Part shown: positions 55,099 to 62,743 of the stretch, in pieces
How the letters are laid out: the number at the start of each line of letters is the position of its first letter
Numbering within the stretch: position 1 is the stretch's first letter
Notes under the pieces: model-generated
What the model saw: only the letters and a program-made list of their open reading frames with translations
Told to the model about the DNA's origin: nothing
Databases searched by the model: none
Position numbers and translations under genes: made by a program
Source: Anaeromyxobacteraceae bacterium
GTDB taxonomy: Bacteria > Myxococcota > Myxococcia > Myxococcales > Anaeromyxobacteraceae
Assembly (NCBI GenBank): GCA_047602405.1
Contig: JASGHJ010000002.1
Coordinates: 1,120,001-1,184,000, forward strand
Direction of reading: 5' to 3'
Length of the DNA stretch: 64,000 nucleotides

Positions 55099-55262
55099 TT
55101 CACGGGGTGCTCGGCGCACCCCGCCCCACGGAGCGGAGCTCCGCGGGGCCCCACCCCGGCAGCGGGTTCACGGGGTGCTCGGCGCACCCCGCCCCACGGA
55201 GCGGAGCTCCGCGGGGCCCCACCCCGGCAGCGGGTTCACGGGGTGTTCGGCGCCCCCGCCCC
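55099..55262. repeat. 68-bp tandem repeat (2 exact copies plus a partial one), REP/BIME-like
   Basis: Units start at 55099, 55167 and 55235. Each full unit has hairpins GGGGTGC-tcggc-GCACCCC and CCCCaCGGAGC...GCTCCGcGGGG. Located between convergent genes. Confidence 0.9.
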
Positions 55263-55270
55263 CAGCGTCC

Positions 55271-55552
55271 TCATCCGCCGCGCGCGAGCCGGTCGCGGAG
55301 CGCCCGGGCCCGACGGCGCCAGCCCTCGTCGAGCTCCCGCCAGTCGATGCCCTCGACGGCGGCGATCACCCCGTAGAAGGCGTTCACGTTCAGCCGGAGC
55401 GGGTAGGCCTCCGCCCAGCGGATGCACGCCTCCTCCCAGCCGAGCTCCCGCAGGTCCTCGACCGTCTCGAGCCCGATCGAGGCGAGCTCGGGCGCACAGG
55501 TCGGGCCAAGGAGCGGGCGGGCCTTCCCGGGCGGGCGGGCAGGAGGGGGCAT
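55271..55552 (-). CDS. TfoX/Sxy C-terminal domain protein
   Basis: LGP.....L..IG..TVEDLRELG..EA...N..Y...AA.EG..W..L. Confidence 0.75.
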   Translation of the reverse strand: MPPPARPPGKARPLLGPTCAPELASIGLETVEDLRELGWEEACIRWAEAYPLRLNVNAFYGVIAAVEGIDWRELDEGWRRRARALRDRLARGG

Positions 55553-55603
55553 GGGGCAGTCGTAGTGCGCGGTGAGCGCTGGCGCCACGGGGTGAGCTGC
55601 CCA

Positions 55604-55677
55604 GCGCAGACGTCTGCGCGGCGGGGCGTTCTACGGTCGGGGGCTGCCGTCAGGGCCTCCGGCGCAGACGTCTGCGC
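55604..55677. promoter_or_regulatory. Two copies of the perfect 16-bp palindrome GCGCAGACGTCTGCGC (55604-55619 and 55662-55677)
   Basis: Seen directly in the sequence; a third near-copy GCGCAGATGTCTGCGC lies at 57301-57316 inside the HNH gene. Confidence 0.8.
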
Positions 55678-55893
55678 ACGTCGCCACGGGGTTCGACGAG
55701 CTTTGAGCACCGCGGAGCCCCGGCCACCATTTCGAGGCCGGCCGTCGGGCCCTGGGGTCGGCTCTCGGGCCCCGGAGGTCCGCCGTTCGTCCGGTAGGTC
55801 CGCGGATCGGACGGGGCCGACCATCGGATCAGCCCTGAGCCCCAGCTGGATCGTGCGATCTCACTGTCAGACCGGGGTGGCAGGATCGCGGGC

Positions 55894-57870
55894 ATGGACG
55901 CGTGCACGGCCAGCGAGCTCGTCGCGGCGGCGCTCCCGGAATTCACTCCGGGTGCCGAGCCGACGGATGCGGCCGCGAGCGGCAGGGCCGCGGACGAGGT
56001 CCCCAGGAGCGAGGCCGCCGGGAACGAACCCGCCGCGAACGACGCCGCCGCGAACGAGGCCGCCCGCGGGGATCCGCTCCGCGAGCGCTGGGACCTGCAC
56101 GCGCCGCGCTGGGAGTACCCGTCTTTCACGATGCTCGAGCTTCGAGAGCTGGTCCTCCGCGGCGAGGGCGGCCCGGAGAAGTTCGAGCGCGCGCTCGCGC
56201 AGGCCGCCTGCATGCGCAGCGCGCTCGAGCTCAGCCTCGGCGCGATCTTCGCCACATTCACGGAGGGTGACCGCCTCGCCCGGCAGGGGTTCTCCAACCT
56301 CGGTGACCTCACCGAGAACCTCTTCGGCGTCCGCCGGCGTGCGGCGCAGGTGGCGGCGCAGCTCGCGAAGGCGCTTCGGGAGCGGCCTCTGCTGAGGGCC
56401 GCGGCGTACGAGGGGCTCGTGACCCCGTCGGCGGCGCTCGCGGTCCTGCCGGTCGCGGTCGGCGACGACGAGGAGCGCTGGGTGGAGGAGGCGAAGGTCC
56501 AGCCGGTCCGGAAGCTGAAGCAGCTCGTGAAGGAGGCCCTGAAGGAGCGGAAGGCGCTGCCGGGGCCGGATGCGGCCGCAGAGCAGGCGGAGGCGGACGA
56601 GGAGCCGTGGGTCCGGCTGCGCGTGCCGATCTCCGACGAGGACCACGCGGATCTCCGCAGCGCCATGGCCCTCGCCGGCGAGCTCGTCGAGAGCTCGCAC
56701 CGGCACGTGCAGCTCGAGGCGCTCGCGCAGGAGTACCTGTCGGAGCACCCGGGAGACGAGTCGGTCGCCGCCGAGGCGGAGCGGGCGGTGGAGCGGCGGC
56801 TCCACCCGCTCGACGTCCAGACGAAGCGCGACGCCGCGGAGGCGAAGCTCGAGGACGAGACCTCCCACTGGGAGGTCCTCGACCCGGTCCACGCCGTCGC
56901 GGCCCTCGACGTGGATCCGAACGCCCTCGCCACGGACGACGAGCTCATGGCGACGGGCCTCGGCATCGCCTCCGAGCTCAAGGCCTGGGACGACTTCATG
57001 GGCTGGTGCTCGGCCGTCGTGAAGGGCACGCACACCCACCGCGAGGCGGGGTTCGTGGACTTCCGGCACTACGCGACCGAGCGCCTCGGCGTCCCGGCCC
57101 GCACCATCGAGACCCGCGCCGCGCTCGAGAAGCACCTCTGGGAGAAGCCGGAGCTCCGGGTGGCGAAGGAGATGGGGCTCACCTACTCGAAGCTCCTCCT
57201 CCTGAAGGAGGTCCCTCAGGTCGACCTCCTCAAGATGGCCCAGCGGGCGGAGAAGCTCACGGTCATCGAGCTCCGGGAGGCGATCCAGGCGAAGGCCGAC
57301 GCGCAGATGTCTGCGCTGAAGTTCTTCGAGGCCCGGGTGCCGCGGAGCGTCGCGGTGCTGCTCGAGCAGGCGTTCCAGGTGTCGCTGATGAGGCGGGTGC
57401 CGGAGGAGCGCCCCACAGAGGAATCAGCCCCCTGCGTGGATGGGTGCGAGCACGACGGAAAGCACGGGAAGGACAAGGGAACGCCGAAGCCGCCCGCCGA
57501 GCCGCCCGCCGAGCCGCGCCTCGACGGACCCTTCCTCGGCGAGCTCGCCCGCCACTTCATCCAGGCCTGGTGCAACGAGCGCACGAAGCCGAAGACCGTC
57601 TCCCAGAAGCAGCGGGCGAAGTACCGGCGCTGCCAGTTCCCGGGCTGCAGCCGCCGGAGCTGCCAGGGCCACCACATCGAGTTTCGCAGCCGCGGCGGCT
57701 CCGAGGACGACTGGAACCGGATGCCGCTCTGCGCCTACCACCACCTCGTCGTGGTCCACGAGGGCTTCGCCACCATCACGGGCATCTTCCCAGACGCCGT
57801 CGAGTTCCGCGTGAACGGCGTCGTCTGGAAGGACGGCCAGTTCGGGAGGAGGCGCAGCGAGCGGGTCTGA
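55894..57870 (+). CDS. DUF222-like repeat protein with C-terminal HNH endonuclease
   Basis: Two GF.....Y/L.E..LG helical modules, then CQFPGC...HHIEFRSRGG...N...LCAYHH...H. Confidence 0.85.
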   Translation: MDACTASELVAAALPEFTPGAEPTDAAASGRAADEVPRSEAAGNEPAANDAAANEAARGDPLRERWDLHAPRWEYPSFTMLELRELVLRGEGGPEKFERALAQAACMRSALELSLGAIFATFTEGDRLARQGFSNLGDLTENLFGVRRRAAQVAAQLAKALRERPLLRAAAYEGLVTPSAALAVLPVAVGDDEERWVEEAKVQPVRKLKQLVKEALKERKALPGPDAAAEQAEADEEPWVRLRVPISDEDHADLRSAMALAGELVESSHRHVQLEALAQEYLSEHPGDESVAAEAERAVERRLHPLDVQTKRDAAEAKLEDETSHWEVLDPVHAVAALDVDPNALATDDELMATGLGIASELKAWDDFMGWCSAVVKGTHTHREAGFVDFRHYATERLGVPARTIETRAALEKHLWEKPELRVAKEMGLTYSKLLLLKEVPQVDLLKMAQRAEKLTVIELREAIQAKADAQMSALKFFEARVPRSVAVLLEQAFQVSLMRRVPEERPTEESAPCVDGCEHDGKHGKDKGTPKPPAEPPAEPRLDGPFLGELARHFIQAWCNERTKPKTVSQKQRAKYRRCQFPGCSRRSCQGHHIEFRSRGGSEDDWNRMPLCAYHHLVVVHEGFATITGIFPDAVEFRVNGVVWKDGQFGRRRSERV

Positions 57871-61138: not shown

Positions 61139-62743
61139 GTGACCACGGCGGATCGGTACGCACTCCTCGCGAAGCTCCCCGACGCTGGCCCCTACACCCG
61201 CTACCTCGCCATCGAGCGCGGCGCGGTCCCGCGCGCGGTCGTCGTCTCGCAGGCCCCGGCGTCGGTGTCCGACGACCCCGCGAAGCTCGACGCGCTCGTG
61301 CGCGACGCCGAGGCCGCGGCCCGCCTGCGCCACGCCCACGTGCTGCCCTCGCTCGGGCTCGAGACGGTCGGCGACGGCACCGCGCTCGTCGAGGCCTACC
61401 GCGCCGGCGTCACGCTCCGCGAGCTCCTCGCGGCGGGCGGCCGGTTGCCCGCTCCGGTCGCCGGGCGCATCGCCGCCGACGTGTGCGCGGCGCTCGGGAA
61501 GATCCACGCGTTCCAGACCGGCGACGGCCGGCCGCTCGTGCACGGACACGTGGGCGCGGAGCACGTCTGGATCGCCGACGGGGGCGAGGCGCTCCTCTGC
61601 GGCCTCGGGACGGGCGGCGGGGGCAGCGCCGTCGAGGACGTCCGGGGCGCGGCGGCGGTGCTCGGCGAGTGCCTCTCCGGCGAGCCCGTCGGCGAGCGCT
61701 TCGACGCGCCCGGCGTGCCGCCCGGGGTCGCCTCGGTGGTGAGCCGCTACCGCAGCGCCGCGTCCGCGGTGCTCGGGCCGGCCGCGCTCGGCGAGGCCGT
61801 CGCCGCCGCCATGAAGCCCGGCCTCGCCGGACGTGACGCGGTCGCCGCGTGGGTCGACCAGGTCCTCCCGCACGCGCAGGGCATCCGCGCCGAGCGCGCG
61901 CAGCTCCTCGAGGACGCGCTCGGGCCGGAGGCGCGCTTCGGCGGCGCCGCGGCCGGCTCGCGCGGCAAGCAGAAGGAGGCGGACCGGCCGACGCCCGCGC
62001 CGATCCCGCACGACGACCACGAGCAGGACGACGAGCTGCCCGCGGAGGAGATCGCGGTCGACCAGATCATCGACACGGCGTCGCTCCGGGCGAAGACCGT
62101 CCCCATGCTCCGCGCCGTCACCGACGAGGACATCCTCGCGATGGCCGTGGAGCCGACGCCGGTCGCGGTGCCGGCCCCGTCGCCCGCCGCCACCCCGCCC
62201 GACGCCGCGCGCGCGTTCCCCGCGCCGGCCGCCCCCGCCGCGAGCCGGGGGCGCTTCCTCGCGCTCGTGGCGGCCGCCTTCGCGCTCGTGGGGTTCCTGG
62301 GTGGCTTCGCGTTCTCGCGCGCGGGGTCCCCGCCGCCTCCGCCCCGGTCCGCGTCGGTCTCGGCCGCTGCCCCCGCGGCGCCGTCCACCCCCGCGCGCCC
62401 CGCGCCTGCGCCCGAGCCGCCCCCGGCGCCGAAGGCGGTGCCCGCGGCCGCGAAGCGCCCGGCCTCCCCGCCCGCCCGCCGTGCGGCGGCGCCTGCGCCG
62501 GCCCCCGCCCCGTCTCCGGGAAGCTCCGACCGCGAGCACGTCCTCGGCGGGCTGCTCACCGTCACCGCGCCGGACGGCGCGAGCGTGCTCCTCGACGGCA
62601 AGCCCCTCGGCACCGGGTCCTTGAAGAAGACCATCCCGGCCGGCAACCACCGCGTGGAGGTGCAGTTCCGCGGGGCGCAGGTGGGGGAGGACTTCGAGAT
62701 GCTGTCGGGCGGGACCTACGAGTACCAGGTCCGGGCGAAGTGA
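61139..62743 (+). CDS. Degenerate Ser/Thr kinase-like (pseudokinase) membrane protein with C-terminal PEGA-like domain
   Basis: A.AAARLRH.HV; LVHGHVGAEHV in place of HRD.P.N; CGLG in place of DFG; then TM, Pro/Ala linker and GLLTV..P.GASV.LDG..LG. Confidence 0.75.
   Translation: MTTADRYALLAKLPDAGPYTRYLAIERGAVPRAVVVSQAPASVSDDPAKLDALVRDAEAAARLRHAHVLPSLGLETVGDGTALVEAYRAGVTLRELLAAGGRLPAPVAGRIAADVCAALGKIHAFQTGDGRPLVHGHVGAEHVWIADGGEALLCGLGTGGGGSAVEDVRGAAAVLGECLSGEPVGERFDAPGVPPGVASVVSRYRSAASAVLGPAALGEAVAAAMKPGLAGRDAVAAWVDQVLPHAQGIRAERAQLLEDALGPEARFGGAAAGSRGKQKEADRPTPAPIPHDDHEQDDELPAEEIAVDQIIDTASLRAKTVPMLRAVTDEDILAMAVEPTPVAVPAPSPAATPPDAARAFPAPAAPAASRGRFLALVAAAFALVGFLGGFAFSRAGSPPPPPRSASVSAAAPAAPSTPARPAPAPEPPPAPKAVPAAAKRPASPPARRAAAPAPAPAPSPGSSDREHVLGGLLTVTAPDGASVLLDGKPLGTGSLKKTIPAGNHRVEVQFRGAQVGEDFEMLSGGTYEYQVRAK

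Follow-up and report, generated by a model that had tools for sequence, protein, structure and literature searches.

Why should one perfect 16-bp palindrome stand twice in front of a nuclease gene and once more, nearly intact, inside its reading frame? The question is raised by a locus in a 64,000-nt stretch of DNA (the window; contig JASGHJ010000002.1, positions 1,120,001 to 1,184,000, forward strand) from an Anaeromyxobacteraceae bacterium, where two copies of GCGCAGACGTCTGCGC precede an open reading frame (ORF) for a protein with two helical modules and an HNH domain. An initial annotation, made from this sequence, proposed that the palindrome is a parS-like binding or loading site for the protein itself. 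We followed up this proposal in the genome of the window (G000; 6.16 Mb, 74% GC) and in the genomes of relatives (G010 and the other G numbers). Genes were predicted with our own codon-score caller, and codon usage was taken from its training genes. The sequence comparisons and structural models described below make it likely that the palindrome is the DNA site of the protein's own two ParB/Noc-type modules. As to its role, we favor, with moderate confidence, a damage-induced selfish nuclease cassette, which would spread and overwrite its copies by nicking and host recombination.

Both exact upstream palindromes and their 58-bp period were borne out. The annotation had noticed no further copy in the window; there was none at up to two mismatches, and the sole other match (position 61473, three mismatches) was at chance level. 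CGCCACGGGGT, reported on both sides of the pair, does form a direct repeat there; with 25 copies in the genome as compared with 27 expected by chance, it is probably incidental. GCGCAGACGTCTGCGC is the most frequent perfect 16-mer palindrome of the genome, having 21 exact copies and 14 more with one mismatch. The Markov expectation was 0.007–0.015 at orders 3–7; it rose to 3.9 at order 9 because the site's own words dominate there. The expected enrichment at HNH paralogues was found in part. A site lies within 500 bp upstream of 6 of the 11 close gene copies, as compared with 16 of the 5122 other predicted genes, but 13 of the 21 exact palindromes lie away from the HNH gene copies (orphans), which hold the other eight. 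With up to one mismatch, the 35 sites divide into 15 at nuclease loci and 20 orphans. The sites are distributed around the chromosome at about one per 180 kb, on both replichores and including the terminus side, and the spacers between paired upstream palindromes vary from locus to locus. The palindrome also follows the protein clade, a link that the annotation had proposed to check: it occurred in 2 of the 37 genus genomes, G000 and G010, both holding the clade of the window protein. These were the only genomes with homologue matches above 60% identity among the matches listed. The pattern was seen in 2 of 41 relatives, and a degenerate symmetric consensus exceeded its control in G000, G010, and G013 only (41 genomes).

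The in-gene copy, GCGCAGATGTCTGCGC, is in frame and encodes A-Q-M-S-A with the rare Ser codon TCT (531 of 50,329 Ser codons in the training genes), as originally described. The suggestion that selection acts here on the DNA rather than on the peptide was supported by the homologues. These comprised 249 ORF matches, of which 195 cover the site and 115 are below 80% identity; further subsets were the 96 rows with a CA core, 77 in the tree (74 after removal of three distant rows), and 80 in the residue table. In the set of 115, codon 473 was the strongest rare-codon outlier of 526 columns (z 15.7; next 9.0). Among its commonest forms in 103 rows were Arg CGT (36), Cys TGC (23), Cys TGT (19), Ser TCT (6), and Trp TGG (6): the residue varies among Arg, Cys, and Ser, and the rare third-position T is retained. 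Homologues of 30–40% identity have (A/R)-Q-(M/L/T)-(R/C/S)-A at the same position. Additional copies of the site, direct or inverted, in the gene or upstream, were held by 21 of 96 homologues (29 matches vs. 5 in a reversed control). They resembled the site of their own gene (2.0 mismatches vs. 3.65 when shuffled; 0 of 10,000 shuffles, kinship uncorrected). Upstream matches were found in 6 of the 96, and symmetrized versions of each homologue's site were seldom found upstream. Judged from these rows, the in-gene site is a family-wide feature and the upstream pair is a lineage feature.

The placement of the sites differs among relatives. In the complete genomes G007, G015, and G023, most gene copies have two sites in inverted orientation at a distance of 672 bp. 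G007 and G015 share one variant of the site, and G023 has another; the peptides RTHLP and RQMRA correspond to opposite strands of one word. The G013 genes contain three to five tandem copies, mostly 51 bp apart. A fixed sequence at free position and orientation looks like a protein-binding site. Paralogue clades inside one genome bear different sites, and distant paralogues (L273, L275, L281, L070–L072) have a parS half-site, GTGGAACA / CAGATGTGGAACA, at the conserved in-gene position. More distant HNH genes of other families (L026, L027, L028) contain the palindromes GTCCCACGTGGGAC or CGTCCACGTGGACG, which are nearer to parS.

Such repeats could also be purely structural, that is, a hairpin like those of repetitive extragenic palindromic (REP) elements or a template-switch product, carried by the gene and unread by the protein. 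Paired copies could base-pair, the inverted in-gene pairs elsewhere could form a stem, REP-like repeats occur in the same leaders, and many intergenic copies lie 6–64 bp downstream of stop codons. However, although the in-gene site is more symmetric than under synonymous recoding (3.85 of 8 pairs vs. 2.91 ± 0.07, n = 112), in keeping with selection on the DNA, its symmetry is partial, and the majority of homologue sites are asymmetric. Second in-gene copies are direct in 12 cases and inverted in seven, and the upstream region folds no better than its shuffles (z −0.94); it had no match in Rfam. A structural origin would also leave the predicted ParB fold and the covariation at Ser179, both described below, unexplained. 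We regard it as improbable.

The whole-protein model (predicted local distance difference test score, pLDDT, 86.8; predicted template-modeling score 0.82) contains in each module a long helix, a helix–turn–helix (HTH) bundle, and a strand–helix–helix segment, with the HNH core at the C-terminus. The two tandem modules recognized by the annotation are homologous (hhalign probability 99.6, E 2.5e-24). Its HNH assignment also stood: residues C580, C585, H593, H594, N608, C613, H616, and H617 are intact, and HNH was matched in 21 of 27 aligned members, although the Pfam HNH match of the window protein is below the cut-off (E 0.0066). For module 1 (pLDDT 95.9), the ten best Foldseek rows were all ParB or Noc (probability 0.98–1.00), including the Noc DNA-binding domain 6y93 (template-modeling score 0.79, root mean square deviation (rmsd) 2.4). 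VIA ranked ParB–parS first for this module (Z 9.0, rmsd 3.0, 105 aligned), a Z value in a range that, by the tool's own warning, may be generic for helical domains; Spo0J (8.2) and KorB (7.8 and 7.2) followed. With the whole chain as the query, VIA placed ParB bound to parS first (Z 6.6); Foldseek returned nothing at E ≤ 0.001 in PDB or BFVD for the whole protein. Weak matches to Pfam HTH_ParB were obtained in 10 of 81 module-1 and 9 of 86 module-2 homologue segments. As to the label DUF222-like, Pfam DUF222 (PF02720) misses the window protein itself; it is weakly matched in 27 of 86 module-2 and 7 of 81 module-1 homologue segments (best E 2.9e-6), with no genome match above its cut-off. The window protein had no Pfam match to the ParB CTPase domain; the sole ParB_N match of the genome is the host ParB. 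The models thus predict twin ParB/Noc-type modules joined to an HNH domain, without a CTPase.

If the palindrome is read, is it read by this protein or by another? A separate host regulator or nucleoid protein could bind it, the gene having captured the site for its own control. Such a binder would fit the retention of orphans in host genes and their distribution over the chromosome. Two candidates were ruled out. The palindrome is not the chromosomal parS, since five canonical parS sites adjoin parAB, and it is not the LexA box, since the box in front of lexA is a different one, which matches that of Myxococcus. These findings, the single ParB_N gene, and the tracking of the site with the clade of the gene, even among paralogues of one genome, argue against a separate binder, which we hold to be highly improbable.

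Recognition by the protein itself is further suggested by residue–base covariation. Mutual information served only as a lead, its scan being dominated by kinship. Ser179 of module 1 aligns weakly with the Gly of the MGHARA motif of the host ParB, which we take to be the equivalent of Caulobacter G201. Noc has an Arg at this position, and the Arg reads a guanine (PMC7383237, available part). In our rows, sites with C at base 11 go with Ser at 179 (7 of 7), and sites with G go with Arg or Lys (71 of 73). In the tree, this C/Ser combination appeared independently in three lineages, on each occasion from Arg and together with an identical G-to-C change of the site. Column 179 was the best of 482 by the base-11 criterion; among 111 conserved columns, it and one other are lost in every C/Ser lineage. 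At the equivalent position of module 2, Glu is found in 78 of the 86 genes that have G at base 6 and is absent from all eight that have another base (few lineages). Separate modules for the two half-sites, with Arg in module 1 and Glu in module 2, would make most sites asymmetric, and Ser in both modules would make the site symmetric in the window clade.

Several observations weigh against recognition of the site by the protein, in addition to the caveats attached above to the VIA score and the shuffling. The Foldseek E-values of module 1 are 0.2–0.6; its profile matches the host ParB weakly (probability 10, E 0.003), and module 2 gave no match. The covariation counts are uncorrected for kinship. 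Under a looser form of the base-11 control, three other columns also pass, one row with G at base 11 has Ser, and base 11 adjoins, but is not, the base read by the Noc Arg. The independent residue–base pairs are three, so that the sign test (p 0.25) cannot attain significance. A single site is present in 75 of 96 homologues, five copies have an in-gene site with three mismatches, the nearest G010 copies have CGGCAGATGTCTGCGC, and 5 of the 11 close copies lack an upstream site within 500 bp. On the whole, the annotation's cognate, parS-like site is indirectly supported by the predicted fold, DNA-level conservation, and the covariation within genes and between residue and base; the term loading site is not, as there is no CTPase domain.

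A further feature of the locus is a predicted PafBC-type DNA-damage promoter just before the start codon. The consensus is tGTC(G/A)G-N10-nAnnnT in the available part of PMC8635444, the TGTCAG variant is documented in that of PMC8151990, and Myxococcus has pafBC with such promoters according to that of PMC9705874. The same motif lies upstream of 47 of 70 homologues, as compared with 0 of 70 in a scrambled control. In G000, it also precedes ssb, a radA-like gene, uvrD, and an exonuclease gene, and the genome holds a pafBC-like gene pair. PafBC-type induction of the nuclease gene is therefore predicted from the -26/-10 motif and this pair, as in the PafBC regulon. There are in all two tandem WYL gene pairs, one with a PafC HTH domain, and two other WYL genes (L306, L307). 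Two TnpB-like genes (L304; G000 C1:643904-645772) lie behind the same promoter motif; a Cas12f1-like TNB domain was present in one that was scanned. The ssb gene with its promoter occurs twice (C1:5296-5778 and C1:20535-21017), identical over the part compared, which may reflect a duplication or an assembly overlap.

The distribution of the gene points to a mobile element. By tblastn, the genome has 11 close copies, counting that of the window (45–100% identity), as well as five distant loci. The close copies have a leader of about 70 bp in common, and their homology stops at the stop codon; several are alike back to the palindrome and not further. Named homologues come from Anaeromyxobacter and relatives, and 992 cluster representatives match the family profile at E ≤ 1e-30. 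Phage and plasmid collections gave no match at 1e-5. RNA-guided HNH proteins of the IscB or HEARO type have a conserved structured RNA next to their gene; likeness of the window protein to IscB is confined to the HNH core. No transposase, terminal inverted repeats, or target duplication were seen across the 11 copies, the flanks of which are unrelated. One close copy (L093:4293-6079; C2 657768-659575) is split into two frames, and another (L278; P0005) has an internal stretch without protein-level alignment.

Comparison with relatives shows movement and replacement of copies. G007 and G023 have an empty site where the window copy lies, and G022 has other genes there. The divergent TfoX C-terminal-domain gene has the same distribution as the nuclease gene in G010, G007, and G023, and so it appears to be co-inserted or co-variable with it. 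At the G010 equivalent of the first upstream palindrome, there is a copy with one mismatch, and the flank alignment stops there. The window copy shares 97% identity with three copies elsewhere in its genome and 83% with the G010 copy at the same site, with flanking genes at 92–94%. At three sites common to G000 and G010, the resident copies are 83%, 75%, and 79% identical, as compared with 95–99% for in-genome paralogues, and at two of them (75% and 79%) the subfamilies differ. Since resident copies diverge more than both their flanks and the in-genome paralogues, copies have been overwritten in place. Five G000 copies have no counterpart in G010, and one G010 copy has none in G000; one divergent copy was inherited vertically (89%).

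Six exact orphans lie inside predicted genes, four written as A-Q-T-S-A and two as R-R-R-L-R. The recJ orphan uses AGA and CGT (0.5% and 2.9% of Arg codons); recJ in four other genomes has common codons there, two encoding the same LRRRLR and two differing by one residue. Junctions at intergenic orphans coincide with G000/G010 synteny breaks in 11 of 12 cases, as compared with 53 of 111 others (Fisher p 0.005), although this test is crude, with a 48% background, loci picked around sites, and three junctions from one locus. Orphan sites were noted inside recJ, 1.1 kb from lexA, and 16 bp after dnaK (L096, L094, and L088). A one-mismatch site 371 bp after recA adjoins a DDE transposase gene in G000 (L092, L289), and the recA-side 6.5-kb stretch of G010 contains four near-sites.

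The main rival to a selfish cassette is autoregulation of a domesticated host DNA-damage nuclease. The sites would then be operators for autorepression or looping, the orphans host-selected docking points, and the similarity of the copies passive gene conversion. Its damage-type promoter, common to repair genes, fits such a role, as do the occurrence of homologues in all 24 of the same-genus genomes searched, the vertically inherited copy, and the orphans in recJ and near recA, lexA, and dnaK. Moreover, G010 retains 8 of the 13 exact orphans at the corresponding position, and the flanks of several are poorly conserved (ascertained set). Yet insertion sites vary between species and subfamilies swap at the same site, and a host role does not need 11 near-identical dispersed copies. 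Most homologues lack upstream sites, which lie about 190–260 bp from the promoter, and the orphans are lineage-specific. On this evidence, we consider domestication unlikely.

Defense or addiction based on self/non-self discrimination, in which the nuclease would cut site-less DNA and the chromosomal copies would mark self, is the least probable of the explanations weighed here. The sites are kept between the sister genomes and cover both replichores as far as the terminus side, and the HNH residues are intact. Against this stand the low density of sites, the lack of a CTPase clamp to spread protection, and the few orphans of other genomes. PADLOC assigned the window protein to no family and gave no more than an HNH-fragment match in two of six proteins, and the scanned neighbors are not defense genes. 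Among the roles originally offered (autoregulation, selfish spread, and defense), selfish spread was best supported and defense found no support here.

The selfish cassette also has evidence to its disadvantage. Between G000 and G010, neither terminal repeats nor a target duplication nor a clean empty allele was seen, and each missing site of these two genomes is occupied by other cargo. Passive homogenization of paralogues can also occur. The ratio of nonsynonymous to synonymous substitution rates (0.3–0.5) is compatible with selfish and host-useful genes alike, and orphans are few in G007 (2 of 10 matches), G015 (3 of 9), and G023 (2 of 7).

For the selfish cassette, we propose the following sequence of events. 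PafBC would turn the gene on after DNA damage. The single chain is predicted to act as a pseudo-dimer, in which module 1 reads one half-site and module 2 the other. Binding would carry the HNH domain to site-bearing DNA, which it may nick at or near the sites. Repair of the nick from a donor copy would overwrite residents and seed new copies beside sites; we are evenly divided on this nick-and-copy step. Short repair tracts could leave a bare palindrome as an orphan, which would persist within genes only where the peptide is kept. The in-gene and upstream sites may let the protein occupy its own gene and so limit itself. Tentatively, the family could represent a selfish class that needs no transposase: a single-chain twin-ParB reader with an HNH nickase and an in-gene recognition code, induced by damage, overwriting its rivals, and writing the 16-bp site into the DNA of the host, in recJ even by synonymous codons.

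How does this compare with known systems? ParB–parS, Noc–NBS, and KorB–OB pair ParB-family HTH domains with 13–16-bp palindromes (PMC7383237, available part). The window protein resembles them in its predicted HTH fold, in its 16-bp site with a central ACGT, in the parS half-site of distant paralogues, and in the varying residue at the ParB G201/Noc Arg position. It differs from ParB and Noc by having no CTPase domain, two modules in one chain, and a C-terminal HNH. There is no parA among the scanned neighbors, canonical parS and parAB lie elsewhere, and the sites are not clustered at the origin. The site lies inside the gene and is usually asymmetric, and the gene is multi-copy and mobile. 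ParB–CTPase–HNH fusions keep the CTPase fold (PMC12704722, available part), which the window protein lacks. The mycobacterial REP13E12 loci are gene-conversion hotspots (87 events) said to 'lack defined biological function' in the available part of PMC13061034. These DUF222–HNH genes (PF02720 + HNH) are likewise dispersed, multi-copy, and C-terminally HNH-bearing, and DUF222 is weakly matched in the modules of our homologues; in contrast, the window protein is below the DUF222 cut-off, has the module twice, and is myxobacterial. No site or ParB link for the DUF222–HNH/REP13E12 family was found in the literature searched.

Free-standing HNH homing endonucleases combine a site-specific HNH with separate DNA-binding domains and spread by gene conversion triggered by a nick or break. 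The window gene may spread similarly, by nick-triggered conversion. However, homing alleles destroy their own target, and the window gene retains intact sites in and before the gene, at many unrelated loci. REP elements with their REP-associated tyrosine transposases (RAYT) have species-specific palindromes that adjoin a nuclease gene and are scattered downstream of stop codons, and their enzyme is an HUH/Y1 transposase. The palindromes of the window family are placed in the same way, but its enzyme gave only HNH-type matches, and its loopless 16-mer is in frame in genes and asymmetric in most homologues. The parts (ParB-type domain, HNH, and 13E12-like family) are known. By its sequence features, the cassette would act as a homing nuclease does, with a ParB reader to aim it, and falls outside ParB systems, homing endonucleases, REP/RAYT, and insertion sequences. 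No description of the protein–site combination was found in the literature searched (main texts, few subscription journals).

DUF222-like HNH genes are widespread and without assigned function; the predicted site, specificity residue, and inducing signal offer a testable mechanism for them. If our reading is true, the ParB DNA-reading domain has been reused for the targeting of a mobile nuclease. The target would be written in each gene itself, giving many natural 16-bp-specific nucleases and a library of protein–site pairs with a readable residue-to-base code. The family would also be a natural experiment in the co-evolution of HTH specificity and site, and the mechanism would account for the gene-conversion hotspots at mycobacterial 13E12 repeats.

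Table 1. Features of the nuclease locus (positions refer to the window).
Feature	Position	Strand	Remarks
TfoX C-terminal-domain gene	55271..55552	-	Divergent from nuclease gene; with nuclease in G010, absent with nuclease in G007 and G023
CGCCACGGGGT direct repeat	55583..55593; second copy 55682-55692	+	Chance-level word
Perfect 16-bp palindrome, upstream copy 1	55604..55619	.	Likely left border of cassette
Perfect 16-bp palindrome, upstream copy 2	55662..55677	.	42-bp spacer, 58-bp period
Leader common to paralogous copies	55775..55893	+	Core 55824-55893 in close copies
TGTCAG-N10-CAGGAT	55865..55886	+	Predicted PafBC-type DNA-damage promoter; 7 nt before ATG
658-aa ORF	55894..57870	+	Two predicted ParB/Noc-type DNA-binding modules, two strand–helix–helix segments, C-terminal HNH nuclease
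Module 1, aa 92-226	56167..56571	+	Long helix and HTH bundle; predicted ParB/Noc DNA-binding fold
Ser179 codon	56428..56430	+	Aligned to ParB G201/Noc Arg position; Arg in most homologues
Module 2, aa 346-476	56929..57321	+	Homologous to module 1
Ser432 codon	57187-57189	+	Module-2 equivalent of Ser179; Glu in most homologues
In-gene site GCGCAGATGTCTGCGC	57301..57316	+	A470-Q-M-S473-A in frame; one mismatch; kept as DNA across family
HNH nuclease core, zinc ligands C580-H617	57631..57744	+	Predicted catalytic residues intact

Other repeats and genes were noted near the family. Leaders of most close paralogues, the window copy not among them, contain a second hairpin repeat and C-rich tandem units (10 genomic copies, e.g., G000 C2:2829969-2830469). 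A 68-bp tandem REP-like repeat (2.4 copies, window 55099-55262) has many matches in G007, G010, G013, G022, and G023; it is missing at the matching G010 position. In G010, the place of the G000 nuclease, immediately after the palindrome, is taken by a lipoprotein-like gene and a gene (L042:4543-5427, minus strand) that looks like a Y1/RAYT-type transposase. Directly upstream of a G013 homologue (L062), there is a repeat–spacer array that is CRISPR-like by appearance.

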